From an uncultured Methanobrevibacter sp. (lineage in GTDB: Archaea > Methanobacteriota > Methanobacteria > Methanobacteriales > Methanobacteriaceae): a DNA stretch of 32,000 nt. The notes under the pieces are model-generated. The model worked only from the letters and a program-made list of their open reading frames with translations, had not been told where the DNA came from and searched no databases. The stretch is taken from NCBI RefSeq assembly GCF_947166415.1, contig NZ_CAMVEE010000015.1, positions 1,413 to 33,412 of the forward strand, given 5' to 3'. Of this stretch, positions 4,468-29,701 are shown piece by piece. Position numbers and translations under genes: made by a program. Within the stretch, counting starts at the first letter, position 1. The number at the start of each line of letters is the position of its first letter.

Positions 4468-4540
4468 TTTTTAGGTATACAAAAATTCGTTATATTATAT
4501 TCTATAATAACAACTATATAAATATTTAGTTATGGCTAAA
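4468..4540 (-). promoter_or_regulatory. Possible feoA promoter with degenerate iron-box-like sites
   Basis: On the minus strand, box A TTTATATA (plus 4515-4522) is flanked by TTTAGTTATGGCTAAA (4525-4540) and TTTTTAGGTATACAAAAA (4468-4485). Both keep only part of the TTTAGG-N4-CCTAAA palindrome seen upstream of feoB. Confidence 0.35.
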
Positions 4541-4632
4541 AATTTAAAAAAAATGATAATTAGAAAATCTAATCATCATCCTTTTTTGGAATTTTTACGC
4601 CTTTTATTCCGCTTTTACTGCGCATATCATCA

Positions 4633-6651
4633 CTATCCGAATCCTGCTAATTTTCCAATGTTGAAAATCAAGAATGAAACTATATATGCAGTCACTAAAG
4701 TAATGGCACACATAGTTGCCGCCCATTTATAACTGTTTGTTTCCTGTTTGATTGCACCGATAGCTGCGAAACATGGGGTGTACAACAAGGTAAATGCCAT
4801 GAATGAAAACGCGGACAATGGGGTGAAAGTATCATGTACCAAACTGGTAATACCTTCTTCGTCATCCTCTTCCATACCTGCAAGAGTACCGAAGGTTGCA
4901 ACAACAACTTCTTTAGCAGCCAAACCGGCAATGATTGCCACAGCAGCTTGCCAAGTTCCGAATCCTAAAGGAGCAAAGATTGGTGCAATAACGTTACCTA
5001 TCATACCTAATACACTTTGAGCAGATCCGTATTCAACACCCAATGGGAAAATGCTTAATGCCCATAAAACGATTGAACAAGCAAGAATGATTGTACCTGC
5101 TTTTCTTAAGAATCCTTTTACTTTTTCCCAGGTGTGTAATAATACACCTTTGATGGATGGTATTTTATAAGTCGGCAATTCCATAACAAATGGAGTTGAT
5201 AGTCCTTTGAATAATGTCCTCTTAAGGATAGCTGCAACAATAAGTGCAACAGCAATACCTAATAAATAGATTGCAAGCAATACGTTACCTTGATTGTCAG
5301 CGAAAAATGCTCCTATGAAAATAGCATAGATAGGCAATCTTGCAGTACATGACATGAACGGAACAAGCATCATAGCAAGCATACGGTCCCCTTCATTTTC
5401 CATGGTTCTTGTTGCCATGATAGCTGGAACACCACATCCGAATCCTAAAATCATAGGGATGAAAGCTTTACCGTGAAGACCTACAATCTTGTGCATGAGT
5501 TTATCTAAAGTGAAAGCAGCCCTTGCCAAGTAACCACAGTCCTCCAATATACTTAAGAACAGGAACATGAGAATAATAATTGGCAAGAAAGTGAGAACAC
5601 CACCTACTCCACCTATGATACCATCACAGATGAATGATGCAAGATATTCGTTTGCAATAAATCCTCCAATGAATTCACCTAAAGCGCCGAATGCCTGGTC
5701 AATCATATCCTGGAAAGGAGCTCCGATAGTAAATGTTAATTGGAACATCACCCACATTATAATAATAAATATGAATGGGGCTAAAATCCTGTTAGTCACA
5801 ATCTTATCAATTTTATCAGTAGTAGTCTCTTTTTCAACAGCAGGTCTTTTAACAGCTTCGGCCATTAACCCATCGATAAATGCATATCTTGCATTTGCAA
5901 TGACCTCTTCAGGACCTTCCTTATAAACATCATGCAAATGTTTACTTACTTTATCCACTTCAACCAATATTTTGGATCCATAACTGGACTGTTGAACTTT
6001 TTGAATTACAATAGAATCTTTTTCTAATAATTTGATGGCAGTCCAGATTGAAGGAACATCCAATAGATTGCTGTCCTTTTCAATAACGGCCTGAAGCTCA
6101 GATAAATGTCCTTTAATATCATTGCTGTAAGCTAACTTTTCACTAGAGTCAACAGGATTTTTAGCGGCTTTTTCAACAGCATTCAATAAATCTTCAAAAC
6201 CGTCTTTTGTTTTCGCATTAATTTCCACAACTGGGAACCCTAAAAGTTCACTCATCAATGGAATATCAATTATGTGCTCTTTTTTCTTTGCAAAATCATT
6301 CATGTTAAGTGCCATTACCAAGTTAGCACCCAATTCCATCATTTGAACTGTTAAATATAAATTACGCTCCAGATTAGCAGCATCAACCACATTGACAATC
6401 ACATCAGAATCGTCATCTACAATGAAATCTCTTGAAACGATTTCTTCCATAGAATGAGCGCTTAATGCATAATTACCTGGCAAATCGACAACATCATACT
6501 CATAACTTCCATGTTTAAAATGACCTTCCGCCCTTTCAACGGTTTTTCCAGGCCAGTTACCTACATGTTGACGCATACCAGTTAATTGATTGAATACAGT
6601 AGTTTTACCCACGTTAGGGTTTCCTGCTAATCCTACAATTAATTTTGTCAT
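4633..6651 (-). CDS. feoB: Ferrous iron transporter FeoB (N-terminal GTPase plus membrane permease)
   Basis: G1 motif GNPNVGKTT, G3 DLPG and G4 NMND, followed by a long polytopic C-terminal domain. 672 aa. GGGAG RBS. Confidence 0.92.
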   Translation of the reverse strand: MTKLIVGLAGNPNVGKTTVFNQLTGMRQHVGNWPGKTVERAEGHFKHGSYEYDVVDLPGNYALSAHSMEEIVSRDFIVDDDSDVIVNVVDAANLERNLYLTVQMMELGANLVMALNMNDFAKKKEHIIDIPLMSELLGFPVVEINAKTKDGFEDLLNAVEKAAKNPVDSSEKLAYSNDIKGHLSELQAVIEKDSNLLDVPSIWTAIKLLEKDSIVIQKVQQSSYGSKILVEVDKVSKHLHDVYKEGPEEVIANARYAFIDGLMAEAVKRPAVEKETTTDKIDKIVTNRILAPFIFIIIMWVMFQLTFTIGAPFQDMIDQAFGALGEFIGGFIANEYLASFICDGIIGGVGGVLTFLPIIILMFLFLSILEDCGYLARAAFTLDKLMHKIVGLHGKAFIPMILGFGCGVPAIMATRTMENEGDRMLAMMLVPFMSCTARLPIYAIFIGAFFADNQGNVLLAIYLLGIAVALIVAAILKRTLFKGLSTPFVMELPTYKIPSIKGVLLHTWEKVKGFLRKAGTIILACSIVLWALSIFPLGVEYGSAQSVLGMIGNVIAPIFAPLGFGTWQAAVAIIAGLAAKEVVVATFGTLAGMEEDDEEGITSLVHDTFTPLSAFSFMAFTLLYTPCFAAIGAIKQETNSYKWAATMCAITLVTAYIVSFLIFNIGKLAGFG

Positions 6652-6763: not shown

Positions 6764-6925
6764 ATTAGGTTAACCTAAACATAATTTATTATTATGATTT
6801 TATGATATATAAATATTTAGGCATACCAAATAATTTAAAATTTAGGTACGCCTAAAAATTAGAAAGGTTTATATACTATGATGATCAACATTTAATACAA
6901 GTGATGAAATTTAGGCACACCTAAA
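6764..6925. promoter_or_regulatory. Divergent promoter region with four iron-box-like palindromes (TTTAGG-N4-CCTAAA)
   Basis: ATTAGGTTAACCTAAA 6764-6779, TTTAGGCATACCAAAT 6816-6831, TTTAGGTACGCCTAAA 6841-6856, TTTAGGCACACCTAAA 6910-6925. Box A for feoB lies on the minus strand around 6803-6818. A canonical AGAAAGGTTTATATA at 6861-6875 on the plus strand points away from feoB. The first site matches 13 of 14 positions of the start of the classical DtxR consensus, TTAGGTTAGCCTAA (quoted from memory). Confidence 0.65.
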
Positions 6926-17289: not shown

Positions 17290-17410
17290 TTTTAGCCATG
17301 GTTTTATCCAAATATAGCACGTGTTATATAACAGATTGTATAAAATAATATATAAATATTTCGGCTAACCAAAAAAATAGAATAAAAAAATAATAAAAGA
17401 TTGAAAGATC

Positions 17411-18917: not shown

Positions 18918-19033
18918 ATTATCAGTATTAGATATCTAGTTATGGTTTAAAAAAGTTTTTGCAAATATTATTGAAAAATTTAATTAATAGTAAAAAGAGA
19001 ATTATTAATGATTATATTTATAGGAAGATAATA

Positions 19034-20812
19034 ATGACTCGTATTTCAATTTTAGACAAAGACCGATGTCAGCCAAAAAAATGTGATTATCTCTGTATTC
19101 ATTACTGTCCAGGTGTTAGAATGGATGAGGACACCATAGTAATTGATGAAGATACTAAAAAACCGCTGATATCTGAAGAATTATGTGAAGGATGCGGTAT
19201 CTGTACCAACAGATGCCCATTTGATGCGGTTACCATTATCAACTTGCCTGAAGCCGCCGGCGATCCGATACACAGATTTGGTCCGAACCAATTTGAACTG
19301 TTTGGACTTCCTACACTTGAAGAGGGAACAGTATTGGGTCTTTTAGGTCAGAACGGTATTGGAAAATCCACAATAATGAATATCCTGGCAGGCAACTTAA
19401 TACCAAACTTTGGAGACTTCGAAAATCCTCCTGAAAACTGGGATAAGGTGATTGAATACTACAAAGGCTCAGCACTTCAAAAGTATTTCCAGGATTTGTC
19501 CGAAGGCAATGTTAAAACCATCTTAAAACCACAGATGGTCGACAAGCTTCCAAAAGTTGTTAAAGGTAAAGTAAGAGACCTGCTCACCAATGTAAATGAA
19601 AGGGACAAGCTTGACTACGTTACAAAAGAATTGCAGCTTGAAAACGTTTTGGACAGAAAAATGGAAAACCTGAGTGGAGGAGAACTTCAAAGGGTTGCGA
19701 TAGCTGCAACAGTGCTTAGGGAAGGTGACTTCTACTACTTCGACGAACCAACATCCTGGCTTGACGTGTCACAAAGGCTTAATGCTGTAAAGGTAATCAG
19801 GTCTCTGGCCGAAGAGGGAAAAAGCGTTTTGGTAATTGAGCACGACCTTGCTACATTGGATGCTCTTTCAGACAACATACATATCCTATACGGTACTCCG
19901 GGCGGATATGGTGTAGTGTCCGGAAGAAAAGGAGTTCGTTTAGGAATCAATGCTTACATCAAAGGATTTTTGGCTGAAGAAAACGTCAGAATCAGAAGAA
20001 ACGCCATTGAATTTACAATAAGGCCGCCTACTCCAGAAGATGAAGGCGAAGCGATTGCAAGCTACACAGACATCCGCAAGGATTATGACGGATTTGAATT
20101 GAGTGCCGACGAAGGTGAAATATTCTATGACGAAATCGTGACCGCATTCGGATCAAACGGTATCGGTAAGACCACATTTGCAAAGATGCTTGCAGGCGTT
20201 GAAGAGCCGACCTCAGGAGAAGTAGATGAGGAAGTTACAATCGCATACAAACCTCAATACATAGTTACAGATTTTGAAGGCAGTGTAAGCGACTTTTTAT
20301 ACATGAACGCACCAAGTTACGGAAGCAAAATCTTTGAAAGTGAAATTATGACTCCTTTCGGATTGAACGACATGCTCGACAAGCCTGTCAAAGGCTTGAG
20401 TGGAGGGGAACTTCAAAGACTAGCTATTGCTTCAACACTTGCAGCGGATGCTGAAATCTATCTTTTTGATGAACCGACCGCATTTTTGGATGTTGAACAG
20501 AGGTTAATAGCTGCAAGAGTAATCAGAAAAATGATTGAAAGTAGAAATGCCGCATCACTTATCGTTGATCACGATATCGTATTTATCGATTACATCTCAG
20601 ATAGGGCAATGGTATTTGACGGTACACCTGGTTTGAACGGTCATGCTTCAAAGCCAACTGACTTGAGAAATGCAATGAACGAATTTTTAGGAAATCTCAA
20701 CATTACATTCAGAAGAGATAAAGAAACAAAAAGGCCTAGAGTTAACAAACTCGACAGTTACAAAGACCGTGAACAAAAAGAAAAAGGAGAATATTATTAC
20801 TTGTCAGATTAA
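19034..20812 (+). CDS. ABCE1 / RNase L inhibitor-type ribosome recycling ATPase
   Basis: N-terminal di-cluster ferredoxin domain ([15 protein letters not shown]...[20 protein letters not shown]). Two ABC cassettes follow (GQNGIGKST / [12 protein letters not shown] / FDEPTSWLD and GSNGIGKTT / [12 protein letters not shown] / FDEPTAFLD). ATG 19034 gives the conserved MTRI start. The track extension from 18959 is not supported. Confidence 0.92.
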
Positions 20813-20904
20813 ATATTCCCTATTTTTTATCTTTTTTTAAAAACTTCCATCCAATATAGATATCAAAAACACGCAATACTTCATTATTAATAGAAAAATA
20901 GTTT

Positions 20905-21211
20905 AAAAAAAAATAGTTATTAAAGTTGAGGAGGAACCTTAATAACTATAGAGAGGCTAAATTATTACAATAGCATGACAAACGACATCTGACTGGCTGA
21001 CTAATGTAATAATTATTCTTAAATACTATGAAGCATGAAAGATCACTCACCATCTTTCAAACATTAGTGATTAGTTCACTAATCTTTGAAAGGCAATGAA
21101 AGATAGAGTGTAAATAGCTATTACTAGCTATTTACGTTAGTTAGTTATATGACCAATTTTAAAATTGAGGTATGGACATATAAATTATCAAACAGGGAAA
21201 TTTGATAATCT
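20905..21211 (-). ncRNA. Candidate structured non-coding RNA, unit A (stand-alone, own promoter)
   Basis: Minus-strand order: promoter module (21205-21265); 5' hairpin TTATCAAA/TTTGATAA (21185-21208); hairpin GTAAATAGCTA/TAGCTATTTAC (21110-21135); long hairpin CTTTCAAA-ATTAGTGA...TCACTAAT-TTTGAAAG (21054-21092); terminal hairpin 20913-20949 with minus-strand loop GGTTCCTCCTCAACT; then T8-9 (plus A-run 20905-20913). The architecture is shared with unit B. The 5' end is inferred. Confidence 0.5.
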
Positions 21212-21265
21212 ATACTATACTACCTAGTAATAACCATATAAATGTTATTAAAGTATTACTATTCA
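21205..21265 (-). promoter_or_regulatory. Duplicate of the Flp-like operon promoter module, facing unit A
   Basis: GATAATCTATACTATACTACCTAGTAATAACCATATAAATGTTATTAAAGTATTACT matches 25005-25060 with about 5 mismatches over about 56 bp. On the minus strand it reads GTAATAC, 10 nt, TTTATATG, GTTATTAC. Confidence 0.6.
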
Positions 21266-21534
21266 TAACAAGCTTTAAATTAGAAATAAAGATGTCAGTT
21301 TCTTTTAAATAAATTAAAAATATGCCCCAACCCAAATTATTCGAAAAGGACAGCCCAACATTCCCCGACGAAAAAAAATAATAAATTAAAAAATCATTAA
21401 AATAATCTTAAATTAAAAAATACTTCCTTAAAATAATTCGCAAATACAAACATGAACTTTAAATAGATATTTCATTAAAAAGATAAAAATAAAGGAGTAA
21501 AATTTGATTTTATCCCCAAACATATTAAAAAATA

Positions 21535-21566
21535 AAATGTAATACTTTTTTAAAAAATAATACTAC
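21535..21566. repeat. 32-bp element GTAATAC-N11-ATAATACTAC (copy 1 of 2)
   Basis: GTAATACTTTTTTAAAAAATAATACTAC (GTAATAC 21539-21545, ATAATAC 21557-21563) is nearly identical to 25342-25369, with the same 11-nt spacing. Confidence 0.55.
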
Positions 21567-21646
21567 ATAGAATAATATTTTTTTATAAAAAAGTAATATA
21601 ATTGTTGAACCATCCAAGAATACAAATTGATTCCAAAAATTAATTT

Positions 21647-21996
21647 AAAAAAAATAGCTATTAAAGACAAGAGGAGCTGATTACTTTAATAGCTATTGTA
21701 GACAGTGAAAGAAACCCATATATGATCATACAAATCTCTTTTTTGATTATTAATTATCTTACATTGATGGAGAAAATAAGCAATATCAATTGGTTATGCC
21801 AACAACCAATATTGCCCGGCTAATGATGAATTATCAACATAAAGATAATTAATTGAAAAATAATCAAAATATTGCTATTCTAACTATTTTTCTAACATTA
21901 GTGATTAACACACTAATCTTAGAAAGACAGTTGAATAATGAGAGTAAATAGCAATAAGCTATTTACAATCATCATATCTGACTATTTTTTAAAACT
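21647..21996 (-). ncRNA. Candidate structured RNA, unit B (3'-UTR position of the Flp-like operon)
   Basis: It begins directly after the mvhD-like stop (21997-21999) with no intervening T-tract. Hairpin GTAAATAGC/GCTATTTAC at 21944-21966. Long hairpin TTTCTAA-ATTAGTG...CACTAAT-TTAGAAA at 21889-21925. Terminal 14-bp perfect hairpin AATAGCTATTAAAG/CTTTAATAGCTATT (21653-21697) with minus-strand loop TAATCAGCTCCTCTTGT, then T8 (plus A-run 21647-21654). Confidence 0.5.
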
Positions 21997-22404
21997 CTAT
22001 TTTAATTCCAATGGCCCAAGTTTTGAGAGAGTTTTATGAAATTCTTCCATAGTTCTCTGAAATTTTTCACCTTCGGATGCTGAAATCCATTCATGACGGA
22101 ATCTCTCTTTTTCAATCCCAAACTCTTCAAGAATATCCTCTACAATTTTTGACCTTCTGGACCATTTGTAGTTACCTGCGTCATAATGGCAGTCACCAAT
22201 ATGGCACCCACCTACAAATACTCCATCGGCACCTTCCTGAAATGCTTTGAAAATCATTGAAGGGTTGATTCTTCCAGAGCACATTACACGAATAATTCTG
22301 ATGTTTGGAGAGTATTGCATACGTGCAGTTCCTGCTGTATCAGCACCACCATAACAACACCAGTTACATAATAAACCTACGATTTTTAAATCATCTGCCA
22401 TCAA
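21997..22404 (-). CDS. MvhD-like iron-sulfur protein (methyl-viologen-reducing hydrogenase delta subunit family)
   Basis: 135 aa. The pattern C.WC.Y.GAD.AG..R.QY....R.IRV.CSGR......AF..GADGV.V.GCH.GDCHY is diagnostic of MvhD/FlpD-type proteins. Confidence 0.85.
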
Positions 22405-22412
22405 ACCACCTC

Positions 22413-23552
22413 TTATAATTCTGTTTTTTCTGGACTGTATAATGGAGGTTTGATATCATCTAAAACTCCAGCTACATAACCAGTTCTATTATAGTATTTT
22501 TTCTGCAATTTATCGAAAATCAATGAAACAGGAATGTCCATCGGACAAACATCATCACATTGGCCACAATCCACACAACTGAAACTCATGTGTGATAGCC
22601 TTACTCCCTGGAACGCTATTGGGAGAGGAGGGATGTTTGCTTCATCCTTGAAGTATGGTTTGTTCAATTCACAGTTTTCGAAGCACCAACAGATCGGACA
22701 AATGTCACGACATGCATAACAGCTAATACATCTGCTCCATTCATCCATTTCACTAACCAGTGGATAAGTGGCATCCTGATTCTTTTTAGCCATTTTGATC
22801 ATGATATTTTCAACTTTTGATCTGCCTTCAACAGCAGGCTCGGAAGGAGACTTGGTTTCAAGAATTCCTGCCTTTTTTGCACCATCTATTAATTCTTGGC
22901 CTTTTTCATCATTGATTTCTATGAATGTCCAGCCGTCCTCTGCTCCCCAGTTTCCACAGGCGATGTTTGCCTTTCTTGGGATTTTCACATCACATCTCTG
23001 GCAGTTTTTACGGCGTCCGTAACCTTCATTTTCAAGGTCATGGATTTTGACTGCCTCTTCGGAACCGTCTGCAAGTTCAATGATAAACTGTCCCTTATCG
23101 ATTTCTTCACTTATGACATCATCAGGATTGGCTTCATAGAACAGGTCAATCATCTCTCTTCCGCTAACAGGAGATACTGTTCCACCACAATTTAAACCAA
23201 TCATGTAAATATTATCCTTATTAATTTTGTGTCTAACTATAAGCTCTTCAACAGCCCTCATATCACATGGTTTGACTGTAAATGCAACTTTTTTATCAAA
23301 GAAATATTTTTGAACAAGATCACCAATCATTGTTGGAGCACAATGATAAGATCCTGCAGTTTTTAATAAATCCTGTGAATCAGTGATGAAAACAGGAAAA
23401 GCATCATAAACATCATCTTGAGGACTTAATGCCAAAACACCATCAACCAATCCTTCATCCAGCAAATATTTGAGAATGCTGGTTACGGCCCCTCCGCATT
23501 CACCAGCTTCATGAATTTCATTATTTTGAGATTTTGCTAAAACATAACTCAT
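22413..23552 (-). CDS. FdhB/FrhB-family F420-reactive flavo-iron-sulfur subunit with C-terminal 2x[4Fe-4S] ferredoxin motifs
   Basis: N-terminal [21 protein letters not shown] and AGS.Y are FrhB/FdhB-like. The C-terminal motifs are [16 protein letters not shown] and [16 protein letters not shown]. Confidence 0.8.
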
Positions 23553-23561
23553 ATTATCCCT

Positions 23562-24575
23562 CTATTTGTTTAATTCCCCGATAACTTCAATAATACCTAA
23601 ATTATCAGACCCAATTACGCAATTGAAATTTTGTACTTCTCCCATTGCATTTACAAAAGACCCGTCTTGTTCCAACCATGTTTTAACTGGAACAACAATG
23701 TTTGAGATTTTTGTAGTATCATTTTCACAGCAGGCAAAAGTGATAATTTTAGATATTTTAGTAAAATCATAATCGAATTCATCTACAACATCGTCATTGA
23801 AAACCAGCAGCAATTTAGTATTATCAAACAACTCCACCATTTCATCTGCGGATTTTGAATCAATGATATCTAAAGCACCTTTTGTATTAGGTTTACTGAA
23901 AACAGGTAGGGCTTTACAATTTAAAGATTCTATTTTATCCAAATCACCCGCTTCATCCACATAATTAAATACAACGACTGAAGAATCATCAATCTCTCCT
24001 TTGAATTTATCTAAAAATTCTTGAACTGAAGAGTTGGAAATTTCATCGGCAATATTGAAAGTAACTGCATTTTCATTTTTGCTTAAGGCATATATCTTGG
24101 CATCATTCTGTTTCGCATGAACAATTCTTCTTCCAATTAACGGATTTTCATACAACAAATCACCAATTACAAATACTTTGCTTGCATTTGCAATCTCATC
24201 ATATGAGGCCACATCCTCAAAATTCTTCAAATCATTTGCATAAAATCCAATATTAAAACCGTTAGATTCTGCGAAATCCTTAATTGCAGCAATATCTTCA
24301 ACACTACAATTACCAGAACAAATTACAGATACGTCTGATGCATTAGCTGATTTAATTTCATTTGAAGCGTCTGCAATTGAATTAGTCAAATCAACATTTT
24401 CGAATTTATTTTTAAAACAATCAATGGAATTTCTTCCATTCAAACAGTTTTTACCAGCGTTAACTGGATGCCTTTTATAGGGAAAAGTCCCAACAATTTC
24501 TTCACCATCTAAAATCACATTTATACCACAACCAACACTGCATGAAGGGCATAACGTGTGTTTAATTTCAAACAT
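23562..24575 (-). CDS. Truncated FdhA-like molybdopterin-oxidoreductase-family protein (N-terminal [4Fe-4S] domain retained, catalytic motif not seen)
   Basis: CPSCSVGCGINV...PVNAGKNCLNGR is the N-terminal Fe-S motif of formate dehydrogenase alpha / Mo-bisPGD enzymes. At 337 aa it is about half the usual length. No Cys-His (or TGA-encoded Sec-His) dipeptide is present anywhere in the translation. Confidence 0.65.
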   Translation of the reverse strand: MFEIKHTLCPSCSVGCGINVILDGEEIVGTFPYKRHPVNAGKNCLNGRNSIDCFKNKFENVDLTNSIADASNEIKSANASDVSVICSGNCSVEDIAAIKDFAESNGFNIGFYANDLKNFEDVASYDEIANASKVFVIGDLLYENPLIGRRIVHAKQNDAKIYALSKNENAVTFNIADEISNSSVQEFLDKFKGEIDDSSVVVFNYVDEAGDLDKIESLNCKALPVFSKPNTKGALDIIDSKSADEMVELFDNTKLLLVFNDDVVDEFDYDFTKISKIITFACCENDTTKISNIVVPVKTWLEQDGSFVNAMGEVQNFNCVIGSDNLGIIEVIGELNK

Positions 24576-24592
24576 AATACATCACCAAATCT

Positions 24593-24943
24593 TTAAAAAG
24601 CAGCATTCAAATTTATTGTAGAACTAATATCCTCTTTAAATAGCTCATAACTTGACTGTCTAGTCAATGAAATCATATTCATCAACATAGTGCATGCATG
24701 ATGGAAAACGATTTGAGAACATTCTTGTTGGATGAATTCTTCAAAAATGTCTAATCTGATCAATCCTTCAACCTTAAAATTTAAATTCAAATTTGAGGAG
24801 GATTTTAAAACAATAATATAGTTTATATCCCTTTGGTCAGTATTTGTATATTCGACAGCCCAATCAACATCCAAATTTAAATTAGTATTTTTGGGATTGT
24901 AATCTTCTCTAATCATGGCCATTCTTTCTACAGTAATTTCCAT
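24593..24943 (-). CDS. Hypothetical 116-aa protein, first gene of the Flp-like operon
   Basis: ATG 24943 (MEITVERMAM...) is preceded by GGAGAG 6 nt upstream. The track start at 24985 is a TTG with no RBS. No motif was recognised. Confidence 0.5.
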   Translation of the reverse strand: MEITVERMAMIREDYNPKNTNLNLDVDWAVEYTNTDQRDINYIIVLKSSSNLNLNFKVEGLIRLDIFEEFIQQECSQIVFHHACTMLMNMISLTRQSSYELFKEDISSTINLNAAF

Positions 24944-25004
24944 ACTACTCTCTCCAATTATTAAAATAATCTCCAAATTATTCAAATTAAAAGAATTAAT
25001 TAAA

Positions 25005-25063
25005 ATAATCTATACCCTACTAACTAGTAATAACCATATAAAGGTTATTATAGTATTACTCTC
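25005..25063 (-). promoter_or_regulatory. Promoter module of the Flp-like operon
   Basis: The minus strand reads AGTAATACTATAATAACCTTTATATGGTTATTACTAG. GTAWTAC lies at plus 25053-25059, 10 nt from box A (plus 25035-42), and the inverted repeat TAATAACC/GGTTATTA straddles the TATA box. The module sits about 60-100 nt upstream of ATG 24943. Confidence 0.65.
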
Positions 25064-25337
25064 AAAATTGGAAGTTTTTAAGACAATAAAGATAAAATAA
25101 GCTTTAAAAAAAATCAAAACACAAACCACATATCTTTATTTCATGAAAAAATGAATGAGGTTGATTTTTTAAGAAAAAATAATAATAGCAAAAACTGCAC
25201 AAATAAGACGTAAACAACGAAATAAGTTAATAAAATGATTATCTGCATTAATCGATAAAGCATTCCATCCAATTTATAAAAATAATGAAATATGTTGAAT
25301 TAAAGAGTGAAAATATTATTAAAACTATAAAGATAAA

Positions 25338-25369
25338 AGTAGTAATACTTTTTATAAAAATAATACTAC
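25338..25369. repeat. 32-bp element GTAATAC-N11-ATAATACTAC (copy 2 of 2)
   Basis: GTAATACTTTTTATAAAAATAATACTAC (GTAATAC 25342-25348, ATAATAC 25360-25366). It lies between the hcgG-like 3' end and the Flp-like promoter. It also forms an imperfect palindrome, AAGTAGTA...TACTACTT. Confidence 0.55.
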
Positions 25370-25402
25370 TTCAAAACATACTTTTATTTAAAAAATTATT
25401 AT

Positions 25403-26972: not shown

Positions 26973-27097
26973 GTATTACTGAAAATTAATTAAATCAATT
27001 GTATTACAAAATAAAAAGTAATACTAAACTATAATATTCCAAACAAATAGTATTATCAGTATTACTAAAAATAATAAAATAATAGAAAAAATAATAC
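26973..27097. promoter_or_regulatory. Dense GTAWTAC heptamer cluster in the divergent hcgG-hmd control region
   Basis: GTATTAC at 26973-26979, 27001-27007 and 27059-27065. GTAATAC at 27018-27024. Near copies: GTATTAT 27050-27056, ATAATAC 27091-27097, GTAATAA 27182-27188. GTATTAC-N10-GTAATAC forms an inverted pair at 27001-27024. Confidence 0.6.
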
Positions 27098-27228
27098 TAA
27101 ATAAAGACCAATGTAAAGATTTAAATAGTACTACTTTTTAAATATAAATTATTACTGCATAGAATAAAAAACCATAATTAAGTAATAAAAAAGCAATATG
27201 ACACATTTAGACCATGCAGTAAAACTTT

Positions 27229-27285: not shown

Positions 27286-27291
27286 GAAAAA

Positions 27292-28305
27292 ATGAAAGTA
27301 GCAATTTTAGGTGCAGGATGTTACAGAACACATGCTGCAAGTGGAATTACCAACTTCTCAAGAGCTGTAGAAGTTGCTGAAGCAACCGGTAAAGAAAACA
27401 TTTCCATGACCCACTCCACAATCGAAATGGGTGCAGAATTATTAGAATTAGCAGGTGTAGACGAAGTAGTAGTATCCGACCCAGTATTCGACGGAGACTT
27501 CACCGTAGTAGAAGACTTCGACTACGCAGACGTAATCGCAGCTCACAAAGCAGGAACCCCCGAAGAAGTAATGCCAGCAATCAGAGCAAAAGTCACCGAA
27601 TTAGCAGAAACCGTACCAAAACCAGCTAAAGGCGCCATTCACTTTACTCACCCTGAAGACTTAGGAATGAAATGTATCAACGATGACGCAGAAGCAGTAG
27701 CAGACGCTGACTGGGTAATGACCTGGTTACCAAAAGGCGGAATGCAAAAAGAAATCATCGAAAAATTCGCACCTAACCTAAAAGAGGGCGCTATCCTAAC
27801 CCACGCATGTACCATTCCAACCACCAAATTCAACGACATTTTCGAAGAATTAGGCGCAAAAGTAAACGTGGCTTCATATCACCCAGGTGCAGTACCTGAA
27901 ATGAAAGGACAAGTATACATTGCAGAAGGATACGCTGACCAAGCAGCTATCGATACCTTACTCGACTTAGGTAACAAAGCAAGAGGAGCAGCATACACAT
28001 TACCAGCAAACTTATTAGGACCAGTATGTGACATGTGTTCCGCAGTAACCGCAATTACCTACGCAGGTATCTTAGCATACAGAGACACAGTAACTCAAAT
28101 CTTAGGTGCTCCGGACGACTTCGCACAAATGATGGCAAACGAAGCATTGACCCAAGTAACCGCATTAATGAACGACGAAGGTATTGCAAACATGGATGAA
28201 GCATTAGCACCATCCGCATTAACCGGTACCGCTGACTCAATGAACTTCGGATCATTAGCAGAAATCGTTCCTACCGTATTAGATTACTTAGGCAAAGAAG
28301 AATAA
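27292..28305 (+). CDS. hmd: H2-forming methylenetetrahydromethanopterin dehydrogenase ([Fe]-hydrogenase) Hmd, copy 1
   Basis: MKVAILGAGCYRTHAASGITNFSRA is the hallmark Hmd N-terminus. 337 aa. THACTIP contains the Fe-ligating Cys region. Codon usage is strongly biased. hcg genes are adjacent. Confidence 0.93.
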   Translation: MKVAILGAGCYRTHAASGITNFSRAVEVAEATGKENISMTHSTIEMGAELLELAGVDEVVVSDPVFDGDFTVVEDFDYADVIAAHKAGTPEEVMPAIRAKVTELAETVPKPAKGAIHFTHPEDLGMKCINDDAEAVADADWVMTWLPKGGMQKEIIEKFAPNLKEGAILTHACTIPTTKFNDIFEELGAKVNVASYHPGAVPEMKGQVYIAEGYADQAAIDTLLDLGNKARGAAYTLPANLLGPVCDMCSAVTAITYAGILAYRDTVTQILGAPDDFAQMMANEALTQVTALMNDEGIANMDEALAPSALTGTADSMNFGSLAEIVPTVLDYLGKEE

Positions 28306-28319
28306 ACACAATAAGTTTT

Positions 28320-28360
28320 AATTGTTGATTTTTATCAACAATTAATTTAACTTATTTTTT
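28320..28360 (+). terminator. Hairpin plus T6 after hmd copy 1
   Basis: AATTGTTGAT (28320-28329) tttt ATCAACAATT (28334-28343), then TTTTTT at 28355-28360. Confidence 0.5.
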
Positions 28361-28436
28361 AAGTGTTTAAAAAAAAGAACCCTTAAAAAATAAGTTAATT
28401 TTTATACTTATGAAAAATTGGAGATTGGTGTTAAAA

Positions 28437-29582
28437 TTGTTAGAAAAACTTAAAAAAATATTCGGCGTTAAAGATGCAGTAGAAACTGTTGAAGCAAAAA
28501 CTGTCGATGAAAAAATTGAAGAAGAAATCATAGCCGTAGAAGAAACCGTTGAAAAAACAAAGAAAATGAAAGTGGCAATTTTAGGTGCAGGATGTTACAG
28601 AACACATGCTGCAAGTGGAATTACCAACTTCTCAAGAGCTGTAGAAGTTGCTGAAGCAACCGGTAAAGAAAACATTTCCATGACCCACTCCACAATCGAA
28701 ATGGGTGCAGAATTATTAGAATTAGCAGGTGTAGACGAAGTAGTAGTATCCGACCCAGTATTCGACGGAGACTTCACCGTAGTAGAAGACTTCGACTACG
28801 CAGACGTAATCGCAGCTCACAAAGCAGGAACCCCCGAAGAAGTAATGCCAGCAATCAGAGCAAAAGTCACCGAATTAGCAGAAACCGTACCAAAACCAGC
28901 TAAAGGCGCCATTCACTTTACTCACCCTGAAGACTTAGGAATGAAATGTATCAACGATGACGCAGAAGCAGTAGCAGACGCTGACTGGGTAATGACCTGG
29001 TTACCAAAAGGCGGAATGCAAAAAGAAATCATCGAAAAATTCGCACCTAACCTAAAAGAGGGCGCTATCCTAACCCACGCATGTACCATTCCAACCACCA
29101 AATTCAACGACATTTTCGAAGAATTAGGCGCAAAAGTAAACGTGGCTTCATATCACCCAGGTGCAGTACCTGAAATGAAAGGACAAGTATACATTGCAGA
29201 AGGATACGCTGACCAAGCAGCTATCGATACCTTACTCGACTTAGGTAACAAAGCAAGAGGAGCAGCATACACATTACCAGCAAACTTATTAGGACCAGTA
29301 TGTGACATGTGTTCCGCAGTAACCGCAATTACCTACGCAGGTATCTTAGCATACAGAGACACAGTAACTCAAATCTTAGGTGCTCCGGACGACTTCGCAC
29401 AAATGATGGCAAACGAAGCATTGACCCAAGTAACCGCATTAATGAACGACGAAGGTATTGCAAACATGGATGAAGCATTAGCACCATCCGCATTAACCGG
29501 TACCGCTGACTCAATGAACTTCGGATCATTAGCAGAAATCGTTCCTACCGTATTAGATTACTTAGGTAAAGAAGAAGAATAA
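28437..29582 (+). CDS. hmd: Hmd copy 2, with an N-terminal E/K/V-rich extension
   Basis: From ATG 28566 the sequence is the same protein as copy 1 plus one extra C-terminal Glu. The frame stays open upstream to ATG 28410. There is no SD before ATG 28566. TTG 28437 is preceded by GGTG (28427-28430) in the same ttGGTGttaaa(a)TTG context as the hcgA start at 29702. Alternative starts are 28410 and 28566. Confidence 0.85.
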   Translation: MLEKLKKIFGVKDAVETVEAKTVDEKIEEEIIAVEETVEKTKKMKVAILGAGCYRTHAASGITNFSRAVEVAEATGKENISMTHSTIEMGAELLELAGVDEVVVSDPVFDGDFTVVEDFDYADVIAAHKAGTPEEVMPAIRAKVTELAETVPKPAKGAIHFTHPEDLGMKCINDDAEAVADADWVMTWLPKGGMQKEIIEKFAPNLKEGAILTHACTIPTTKFNDIFEELGAKVNVASYHPGAVPEMKGQVYIAEGYADQAAIDTLLDLGNKARGAAYTLPANLLGPVCDMCSAVTAITYAGILAYRDTVTQILGAPDDFAQMMANEALTQVTALMNDEGIANMDEALAPSALTGTADSMNFGSLAEIVPTVLDYLGKEEE

Positions 29583-29589
29583 GTTAAAA

Positions 29590-29627
29590 TGTTGGATTTA
29601 ATCCAACAATTATTTAACTTATTTTTT
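29590..29627 (+). terminator. Hairpin plus T6 after hmd copy 2
   Basis: TGTTGGAT (29590-29597) tta ATCCAACA (29601-29608), then TTTTTT at 29622-29627. It is homologous to 28320-28360 but differs by paired stem changes. Confidence 0.5.
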
Positions 29628-29701
29628 AATTGTTATCTGAAAATAGCCATTAAAAAATAAGTTAGGATATTTAATTTAATAGAGTTTAAGTTGGTGTTAA
29701 A

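Follow-up and report, generated by a model that had tools for sequence, protein, structure and literature searches.

Predicted structured RNAs of the elpXABC locus in gut and rumen Methanobrevibacter take two forms, operon trailer and stand-alone gene: a candidate link to nickel limitation

The stretch of DNA analyzed here (hereafter the window) comprises 32,000 nucleotides (nt) of an uncultured Methanobrevibacter sp. (assembly GCF_947166415.1, contig NZ_CAMVEE010000015.1, positions 1,413 to 33,412 of the forward strand) and contains, between the ABCE1 gene (18959-20812, plus strand) and the MvhD-family gene elpC/flpD (21997-22401, minus strand), a gap that carries, on the minus strand, two related units, denoted A and B, with ABCE1 convergent on them. 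The G+C content of this gap (20813-21996) is 23%, against approximately 35% in the surroundings, and, as had been pointed out in a first-pass annotation made from the letters alone, it lacks open reading frames (ORFs) of 60 codons or more on both strands, the longest encoding 41 amino acids (aa). These short ORFs fall into the variable loops and the middle region of the units and none of them looked conserved when read against the alignments, on which grounds a small-protein interpretation was set aside. No transfer RNA (tRNA) was matched in the window, and the search of Rfam 15 yielded no match in the window at the gathering thresholds; at E <= 10, only chance-level microRNA and small nucleolar RNA matches appeared (14-23 bits against thresholds of 60-208; the best match reached 22.8 bits against a threshold of 60). 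Literature searches found no regulatory RNA described for Methanobrevibacter. Thus, the RNA family formed by units A and B is new.

Unit A is predicted to give rise to an RNA of about 308 nt (20905..21212, minus strand) that extends from a predicted start some 26 nt downstream of the center of the TATA box to the end of a U run and consists, in order, of the hairpin H0, the helix P1, the hairpin H1, a C/U-rich linker, the hairpin H2, a middle region, a CCUCUCU tract, the terminal hairpin and the U run. H0 (GAUUAUCAAA...UUUGAUAAUU, 21183..21210), at the predicted 5' end, combines an invariant stem base with upper pairs that covary (AU:6, UA:3, GC:2) and a loop that measures between 3 and more than 25 nt among orthologues; as read from the sequence, its homologue is the hairpin with which the elpX leader begins. 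P1 (AUAUG...CAUAU together with ACC/GGU, 21146..21182) encloses the loop CUCAAU (21164-21169), and the corresponding CTCAAT is invariant in 14 sequences. The P1 helix forms in single-sequence folds of 7 of the 13 orthologues, and ACC/GGU is exchanged for GGC/GCC among orthologues when these are compared by eye; the helix is considered tentative because RNAalifold made no call of it. H1 is a perfect hairpin of 11 base pairs (GUAAAUAGCUA-GUAA-UAGCUAUUUAC, 21110..21135), separated from H2 by the C/U-rich linker ACUCUAUCUUUCAUUGC (21093..21109), in which CUCUAUCUU is almost invariant among the copies of unit A and whose motif AUCUUUCA occurs again at 21034-21041.

H2 is a three-tier hairpin (21043..21102) with a two-tier core (21054-21092); the core UUUCnAAGAUUAGU...ACUAAUGUUnGAAA is almost invariant and includes a G-G mismatch, whereas the outer tier covaries and is rich in G·U pairs (UG:32, CG:7, UA:7 at one position and GU:37, AU:12 at another), with 98.6% of the cells of the hairpin paired. 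The middle region (20961..21042) is unconserved and in three loci (L020, L023 and L033) holds an extra CCCUCCUC. After the CCUCUCU tract (20950-20956) comes the terminal hairpin (20913..20950), with the loop CCUCCUC at 20928-20934; its stem GUUAUUAAAGU/ACUUUAAUAAC and the CUCC of the loop are invariant in 13 orthologues, and comparison with the corresponding unit B stem (GCUAUUAA/UUAAUAGC) reveals a compensatory change from U-A to C-G. The archaeal termination signal, a run of eight to nine U (20905..20912), completes the unit, and in some orthologues a T5 run lies 10-25 nt further downstream. The positions that the first-pass annotation had given for H1, the H2 core and the terminal hairpin all proved accurate, as did its report of the CCUCCUC loop and the U run at the end of unit A.

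Unit B is a structured trailer of about 350 nt (21647..21996, minus strand) that begins right after the stop codon of flpD/elpC and contains H1 (21944-21966), H2 (21882-21932) and a terminator hairpin (21654-21697) followed by a U run, so that the three hairpins of unit A, H1, H2 and the terminal one, indeed recur in the same order. In addition, a long-range helix of unit B encloses UUCAUCAUUAGCC and a variable hairpin, and is followed by the conserved UUUUCUCCAUC and another hairpin ahead of the terminator hairpin. The position of this unit is constant: in all 31 loci with a flpD match (29 distinct genomes), H2 of unit B lies 70-115 nt after the flpD stop on the same strand. The 35 non-redundant unit B sequences include the present window and metagenome contigs. 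Contigs on which a FlpD identical to that of the window comes with a different downstream gene also have a unit B, diverged in sequence, with the hairpins kept by compensatory changes. The genes located downstream of unit B vary by species and include a nicotianamine synthase (NAS), a ferritin-like ORF and mtd. A riboswitch or another 5'-leader element was considered and rejected, given that only the convergent 3' end of ABCE1 follows unit A and that the genes after unit B vary. Likewise, an archaeal selenocysteine insertion sequence (SECIS) was rejected because flpD and the other ORFs of the operon contain no internal stop (the SECIS consensus was not scored). As a separate observation, H1 of both units (21944-21966; 21110-21135) and the terminator hairpin of unit B (21654-21697) share the self-complementary core AAUAGCUAUU; therefore, pairing would also be possible between the H1 5' arm and the terminator 3' arm together with the U run, as an alternative long-range fold or in dimerization.

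The predicted fold of unit A (-88.1 kcal/mol) exceeds what is expected by chance, with shuffled sequences reaching -47.3 +/- 4.2 kcal/mol (z = -9.6), and unit B shows a comparable departure from its shuffles (z = -8.4). In the alignment of the shared 5' domain (H1 and H2, 49 sequences, aligned with MAFFT without structure fitting), 97.8% of the cells are standard pairs and 14 pairs are changed on both sides, compared to 4.7 +/- 1.4 in shuffled alignments (0 of 500 reaching the observed value) and to at most 5 pairs when the partners are slid; within H1, 8 of the 11 pairs show such changes. The 35 unit B sequences, examined over five helices including the long-range one, give nearly the same picture: 97.9% of the cells are paired, and the number of pairs with changes in both partners is again 14, where shuffled alignments average 4.6 +/- 1.5 and none of 500 reaches the observed value. 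The hairpins are conserved and covary; the first-pass annotation had listed the opposite outcome among those that would refute its proposal. Moreover, the helix cells contain 119 G·U but only 9 A·C combinations, and loop lengths differ by approximately 3 to 14 nt between fixed arms; therefore, it is the minus-strand transcript that can pair in this way, and not the DNA duplex or the opposite strand. Taken together, these comparisons of sequences support both the strand and the structure, and units A and B are best described as two paralogous members of one predicted structured RNA family.

A feature acting at the level of DNA, such as a miniature inverted-repeat transposable element (MITE), an origin or a palindrome array, might be suspected from the AT-richness of the gap and its many inverted repeats, and the GTATTAC boxes of the spacer, described below, probably are DNA sites. 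With regard to the units themselves, such an explanation is extremely unlikely: the excess of G·U over A·C indicates pairing on one strand only, the loop lengths vary between arms that stay fixed, no turn of the GC skew is seen at the site, and the element occurs in one or two copies at a single locus in the same orientation relative to flpD. The viral contigs contained no homologue, the single match there being a chance hairpin. With so few copies, all confined to that one locus, the element is not a mobile repeat, and this disposes of the possibility, raised in the first-pass annotation as a potential refutation, that the region is a MITE-like repeat present in many contexts.

Scanning one genome per species (185,579 species) with a pattern of the H2 core yielded 37 matching stretches. 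All but one of these belong to Methanobrevibacter, among them M. thaueri, M. millerae and many metagenome-assembled genomes from rumen and gut; as the pattern was derived from the element itself, the scan bears on the constancy of the location and not on the number of species that lack the element. The matches other than unit B lie between unit B and ABCE1, that is, they correspond to unit A. Profile searches recovered full-length orthologues of unit A (275-340 nt) from at least 15 genomes. One of these is the complete Methanobrevibacter sp. YE315 genome, where the respective gap has no annotated gene calls. A scan of metagenomes with a pattern of the unit A terminal hairpin was far less productive, with two genuine loci (L162 and L165) among the 120 returned, this AT-rich palindrome being too generic. 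As judged from the genomes compared, the family is confined to the clade of gut and rumen Methanobrevibacter that includes M. thaueri, M. millerae, YE315 and their relatives, which is understood to lie within the dominant group of ruminant methanogens.

Conservation across eight species is distributed unevenly. The mean pairwise identity is 0.96 in the unit A promoter, 0.63-0.83 from H0 to H2 and 0.72 in the terminal hairpin, compared to 0.39-0.49 in the middle region and 0.06-0.5 in the spacer between the units. The promoter, the hairpins and the loop motif were kept in 13-15 genomes while the spacer decayed, which points to selection on a product without any ORF to stabilize, and unit A accordingly appears to be under selection as a gene of its own. 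By sequence, it has the features of an independent transcription unit, namely a TATA promoter, a terminal hairpin with a U run, and no ORF longer than 41 aa. Thus, the proposal of the first-pass annotation, a stand-alone structured RNA gene on the minus strand with its own promoter and a C/U-rich loop, is supported by orthologues in at least 15 genomes, a nearly invariant promoter, compensatory changes and the strand-specific excess of G·U. Unit A also has shortened and missing versions. That of locus L006 (2860-3130, minus strand) retains the promoter, H0, P1, H1, the linker CUAUCUUUC and the U run without H2 and the terminal hairpin, and may represent either a minimal functional part or decay in this lineage; the related locus L040 (2948-3028) has no unit A.

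The promoter of unit A is a 35-nt module (AGTAATACTTTAATAACATTTATATGGTTATTACT, 21226..21260, minus strand) with the TATA box TTTATATG at 21235-21242, about 26 nt upstream of the base of H0, flanked by the inverted repeats TAATAAC/GTTATTA and AGTAATA/TATTACT. Their placement on either side of the TATA box resembles that of an operator bound by a repressor, as far as can be judged from sequence. The twin of this module, with two mismatches and 0 matches expected by chance, is located at 25026..25060 on the minus strand and is the predicted promoter of the flpECBD/elpXABC operon; the module precedes every unit A and every flpE/elpX that were found. The first-pass annotation had taken the module to be shared with the Ni/Co transporter, and a copy does precede cbiM (at approximately 1021-1050) and shares the core ACTTTAATAACnTTTATAT; this copy is only partial, however, as it lacks the downstream GGTTATTACT, and the complete twin is that of flpE/elpX, so that the transporter promoter was rejected as the full counterpart. 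The similarity extends beyond the promoter: a segment of approximately 420 nt that precedes unit A is collinear with the intergenic region between hcgG and flpE/elpX (21234-21654 vs 24986-25402), and this block includes GTATTAC boxes, a T-rich block TTATTATTTTTT, the promoter and the first leader hairpin, implying that the whole upstream region was duplicated and not the promoter alone. The homology between units A and B, in turn, begins at the flpD stop codon. From the upstream collinearity and this boundary, it follows that unit A corresponds to the elp promoter and leader joined to the elp trailer, none of the four ORFs being left between them. Of the two units, A seems to be the derived one because only a subset of the genomes with unit B possess it, a polarity read from presence and absence rather than from a tree. 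The promoter conservation, the origin and the genomic linkage of the element are shown by these comparisons of sequences.

The putative regulatory DNA around these promoters shows its own pattern. A cluster of GTATTAC/GTAATAC boxes (inverted repeat I3, 21535..21603), candidate transcription-factor sites, lies just downstream of the unit B terminator and about 300 nt upstream of the unit A promoter; its identity over the eight species is 0.75-0.83, far above the 0.06-0.5 of the flanking spacer, and a collinear copy is found at 25335-25365, upstream of elpX. The octamer GTATTACT occurs nine times in the window compared to 0.87 expected (a tenfold excess), always in intergenic regions, near cbiM, elpX/flpE, unit A and hcgG/hmd. 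The GTATTACT/AGTAATAC boxes (990-1029, 1199-1206, 21253-21260, 21535-21603, 25053-25060, 25335-25365 and 26973-27098) look like the operator set of a single metal- or H2-responsive regulon, and NikR would be our guess for the factor that binds them. Repeats resembling operators and shared by the promoters of uptake and replacement-enzyme genes, as expected of a nickel regulon, are thus present here as motif enrichment only; no such box was detected upstream of mvh in YE315. One of the boxes is a GTATTAC-N10-GTAATAC palindrome at 27001-27024. The metal link suggested in the first-pass annotation gains support from the elpXABC promoter twin and from these boxes, although this falls short of proof.

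The operon that carries unit B as its trailer, elpXABC (flpECBD; 21997..24943, minus strand), consists of elpX/flpE (24593-24943), elpA/flpC (23562-24575), elpB/flpB (22413-23552) and elpC/flpD, and the genes were assigned from Pfam and NCBIfam matches. ElpX/FlpE (116 aa) itself had no match in Pfam or NCBIfam; elpA encodes a truncated FdhA in which the Fe4S4 domain is kept and the molybdopterin domain is partial, elpB an FdhB/FrhB-like protein, and elpC an MvhD-like protein. This architecture matches that of ElpXABC described by Nomura et al. (PMC12350162). When nickel is strictly limiting, Elp of Methanothermobacter marburgensis takes the place of the [NiFe] hydrogenase Mvh at the heterodisulfide reductase (Hdr) (Nature 2025, PMC12350162); the ElpXABC proteins, Hmd and HcgG increase, the MvhAGD and FrhAGB proteins vanish, and MvhB stays (PMC12350162), a proteomic response known for the M. 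marburgensis homologues only. An earlier study reportedly found the transcription of mvh unchanged under such conditions (PMC12350162). At scarce nickel, all electron flow has recently been shown to pass through the Hmd/Elp route. The window also encodes cbiMNQO (a Ni/Co transporter of the energy-coupling factor type), two copies of hmd, and hcgA, B, C and G. Given these associations of genes and promoters, we infer that unit A may belong to a regulon responsive to nickel limitation. The two hmd genes are arranged in tandem (27292-28305 and 28410-29582) and share a 300-nt stretch of 100% identity (27289-27588 and 28563-28862), as would result from a duplication or a gene conversion in the recent past. 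Behind both genes lie hairpin-containing trailers of 81 nt that resemble each other (28317-28397 and 29584-29664, 77% identical).

What the RNAs might do is suggested by their unpaired pyrimidine motifs, in which the constraint on sequence outside the helices recurs. In unit A, these are CUCAAU of the P1 loop, CUCUAUCUUU of the linker, a tract of UCUCUCU and the CUCCUC loop; all 13 terminal loops contain CUCC within variable flanks, and CUCAAU and CUCUAUCUU are invariant or nearly so, as would be expected of seeds complementary to Shine-Dalgarno sequences. Every unit B contains, next to the conserved UUUUCUCCAUC, at least one CUCC/CCUC motif, which some species have in the linker between H1 and H2 and others in the terminal loop, whereas the antisense strand has almost none; the sequence of the unit B linker varies but stays C/U-rich, often with CCUCC. 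We therefore put forward, tentatively and with somewhat less than even confidence, a nickel-linked RNA acting in trans on Shine-Dalgarno sites. Under this model, unit B would be transcribed as the 3' trailer of the elpXABC (flpECBD) mRNA, and unit A as an independent minus-strand transcript of about 300 nt, its gene having arisen when a duplicate of the elp upstream region, with its promoter and leader hairpin, was fused to a duplicate of the trailer and the four ORFs were lost. As one promoter module serves both forms, the RNA would be expected to build up together with the induction of elp, and hence at low nickel. In this module, the TATA box is embedded in GTAATAC-type repeats, and further boxes are common to cbiMNQO, hmd and hcg. 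The unpaired CUCCUC of the terminal loop, CUCUAUCUUU of the linker and CUCAAU of P1 would pair with purine-rich Shine-Dalgarno sequences and lower translation, with H0, H1, H2 and the terminator hairpin providing stability and presentation of these motifs. The best candidate targets would be the [NiFe]-hydrogenase cistrons mvhD, mvhG and mvhA, whose products are replaced by Elp.

With respect to these targets, GAGGAG precedes mvhD, mvhG and mvhA in one locus (L175), and mvhD and mvhA in YE315 (L178), where the mvhG sequence is GGAGGAA; mvhB lacks GAGGAG in both loci that include this gene (L177 and L178), and YE315 was placed in the same clade through its MvhD cluster. Of 29 window genes, not one carries GAGGAG at a distance of 25 nt or less from the start. 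The terminal loop of the window combined with the mvhD start region yields -15.7 to -16.3 kcal/mol, compared to -13.9 kcal/mol for the best of 30 window genes. Although weak as evidence, this distribution agrees with the biology, in which Mvh gives way to Elp and MvhB is spared. Searching for duplexes between these 30 start regions and four probes (the P1 loop, the linker, the pre-terminator tract and the terminal loop) returned only ordinary Shine-Dalgarno matches within the window, such as the GGAGGAA of cbiM (-13.2 kcal/mol), and the longest Watson-Crick match to the mvhD ribosome binding site is just UCCUCCUC. Duplexes of full-length units A and B with the start regions of YE315 were dominated by AT-rich artifacts, and no pattern of covariation emerged between the loop or linker of unit B and the ribosome binding sites of elpX, elpA, elpB and elpC across species. 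The region upstream of mvh in YE315 (L178, 5686-6000; also L175, L176 and L177) appears, when read from a promoter-like TTTATAT upstream, to contain an mvhD leader of about 190 nt; the ribosome binding site of mvhD is UAUAGAGGAGGAG, those of mvhG and mvhA are likewise of the GGAGGA type, and that of mvhB is GGGGGU or GAGGUG, a difference that fits separate translational control of mvhDGA and mvhB.

Several observations weigh against the trans-acting model. The complementarity to mvhD, mvhG and mvhA spans 6-9 nt inside a generic strong Shine-Dalgarno sequence, without any longer duplex; the loop of YE315 unit A is GGCUCUC, with weak pairing, and in a few unit B orthologues neither the linker nor the loop has CUCC. 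Many species have unit B without unit A, which, together with the truncated copy of L006 and the absence from L040, indicates that unit A is dispensable. No homologue of the element was detected downstream of distant elp operons (FlpD identity of 72-80%, L043-L047), a comparison that excluded the Methanothermobacter elp trailer, and in another genome of the Methanobacteriales elpC is followed by only a simple terminator hairpin; the element is therefore specific to one clade and cannot be how the nickel switch operates in general. The invariance of the H2 core suggests that a protein recognizes it and that its role is not structural alone. Furthermore, the transcript, its ends and its induction are all predictions, and nickel control, action in trans and the identity of the targets are inferred.

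The invariance of H2 is at the center of a different explanation, under which the element is a protein-binding RNA, a scaffold or sponge whose H2 helix, with its G-G mismatch, and pyrimidine tracts would dock an Lsm/SmAP-like or ribosomal-type protein, to be titrated or delivered when elp is on. Compensation would suffice to keep the helix, yet 12 of the 13 paired positions of the H2 core show no variation among the 35 sequences of unit B; motifs of the AUCUUUCA type are repeated around H2, and the C/U tracts are variable in sequence yet constrained in composition. Nonetheless, no candidate protein gene is linked to the element, and the G-G mismatch of the core is replaced by a G-C pair in 6 of 14 unit A orthologues, for which reason the mismatch is not essential; we regard a scaffold or sponge as improbable.

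The 3' arm of H2 also has two alternative partners, the upstream AAUUGU and the downstream GAUUAUU, both with some support, and this would be compatible with a conditional terminator in which unit B governs read-through from elpC into the next gene, often mtd, with unit A as a relic. At least seven loci (L009, L016, L026, L028, L031, L032 and L042) have, by eye, an Mtd-like ORF on the same strand 45-110 nt after unit B, where the identity as Mtd is our assumption, based on the N-terminus. In the window and in 14 other genomes, however, nothing lies downstream on the same strand, ABCE1 being convergent, and the element is still fully conserved there; where genes do follow, they differ (NAS, the ferritin-like ORF and mtd). 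Conditional termination is, accordingly, quite improbable in our assessment.

A further possibility is that the element works in cis only, unit B terminating the elp mRNA and stabilizing it by blocking 3' exonucleases, and that unit A, left by a partial duplication of the operon, is a tolerated by-product that would be transcribed but have no target. Unit B always directly follows the operon and ends with a hairpin and a U run, and unit A, as a fusion of promoter and trailer that lost the central domain of unit B, that has a neutrally evolving middle region of its own and that is truncated or absent in some lineages, would be at home in such a scheme; furthermore, the target search gave no specific target. 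Against this, archaeal termination needs a U run alone, a 350-nt trailer with six helices, including covarying long-range ones, exceeds what a stabilizer needs, and the promoter (0.96), hairpins and loop motif of unit A were retained in 13-15 genomes next to a spacer at 0.06-0.5. We consider a purely cis role doubtful.

If the trans-acting model is followed further, a more specific version can be formulated, namely a nickel-sparing riboregulator that silences mvhD, mvhG and mvhA, and perhaps frh, and spares mvhB. Conceivably, once nickel is exhausted, a NikR-like repressor that binds the GTAATAC repeats would free both copies of the elp promoter, the RNA would appear in its two forms, elp trailer and stand-alone transcript, and the CUCCUC-type loops would block mvhD, mvhG and mvhA. 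Should this be the case, a single transcriptional event would install Elp at Hdr and remove Mvh, which would explain, in this clade, the loss of MvhAGD with MvhB and mvh transcription kept, as in Methanothermobacter. In this complete form, the scenario seems unlikely to us.

The parallels with characterized small RNAs (sRNAs) help to place the family. The intergenic sRNA41 of Methanosarcina mazei acts on polycistronic ACDS mRNAs, whose ribosome binding sites it masks (Buddeweg et al. 2018, as summarized in PMC5867862). The common points are a methanogen sRNA, the proposed pairing of pyrimidines with Shine-Dalgarno sequences of several cistrons and a tie to nutrient limitation. There is no homology in sequence or structure, the present units are 3-5 times the usual size of an sRNA and have 5-7 helices, the element is both an operon trailer and a stand-alone gene, and its targets are candidates only. 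Bacterial sRNAs derived from the 3' untranslated region (3'UTR) include the CpxQ, SroC and DapZ types. Unit B occupies the equivalent position: it begins where the last cistron of the operon stops, has the orientation of the mRNA and uses its terminator, and, like these sRNAs, would be made whenever the operon is on, whereas unit A, with its own promoter, falls outside the 3'UTR-derived class. The system differs from these sRNAs in being archaeal and in that the RNA was also freed as a gene through a duplicated operon promoter, DapZ-type sRNAs having an internal promoter.

Metal-sparing sRNAs, such as RyhB, PrrF and FsrA, respond to iron. The resemblance consists in a metal-limitation regulon with an uptake transporter and metal-free replacement enzymes and in the predicted decrease of metal-enzyme synthesis; here, however, the metal would be nickel and the organism is an archaeon, with both the NikR-like repressor and the targets hypothetical. 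We know of no archaeal nickel-sparing sRNA. In the C-rich-motif sRNAs RsaE/RoxS of Firmicutes, exposed C-rich motifs pair with G-rich Shine-Dalgarno sequences. The units described here similarly carry several C-rich motifs in loops and linkers, with proposed pairing to G-rich Shine-Dalgarno sequences of multiple mRNAs, but the motifs are CUCC/CCUC and not CCCC, and the lineage, size and architecture are different.

To our knowledge, few regulatory RNAs are known in methanogens, and a family that is physically wired, and by prediction transcriptionally wired, to the Hmd/Elp route is a testable candidate for the post-transcriptional side of the nickel switch. It also offers an example of the birth of an RNA gene, in which the promoter and leader of an operon were apparently fused to its own trailer with loss of the coding genes; both this mode of origin and the occurrence of a predicted structured, possibly regulatory, RNA in two forms are unusual. 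Even if the target model is wrong, a six-helix trailer of about 350 nt on a core energy-metabolism operon calls for an explanation.

Two additional observations concern metals in the neighborhood. A gene similar to nicotianamine synthase (Pfam NAS) adjoins the element in three loci (L002-L004, 1080-1901), and a 276-aa ORF at the same place in L041 (2958-3788) is similar by eye, as, judging by gap length, may be the case in L020 and L033; this gene follows unit B in one group and is convergent on unit A in another. Enzymes of the nicotianamine-synthase type make metal chelators, and this neighbor might be a further hint of the metal theme. Finally, the repeat TATATAAATATTTAGG-N-CCTAAAAATT, with a palindromic TTAGG...CCTAA core, occurs at 4515-4549, 6806-6840, 6831-6865 and 17345-17376, that is, on both sides of feoB (4633-6651) and once more near 17350, and may be an operator for an iron-responsive repressor.

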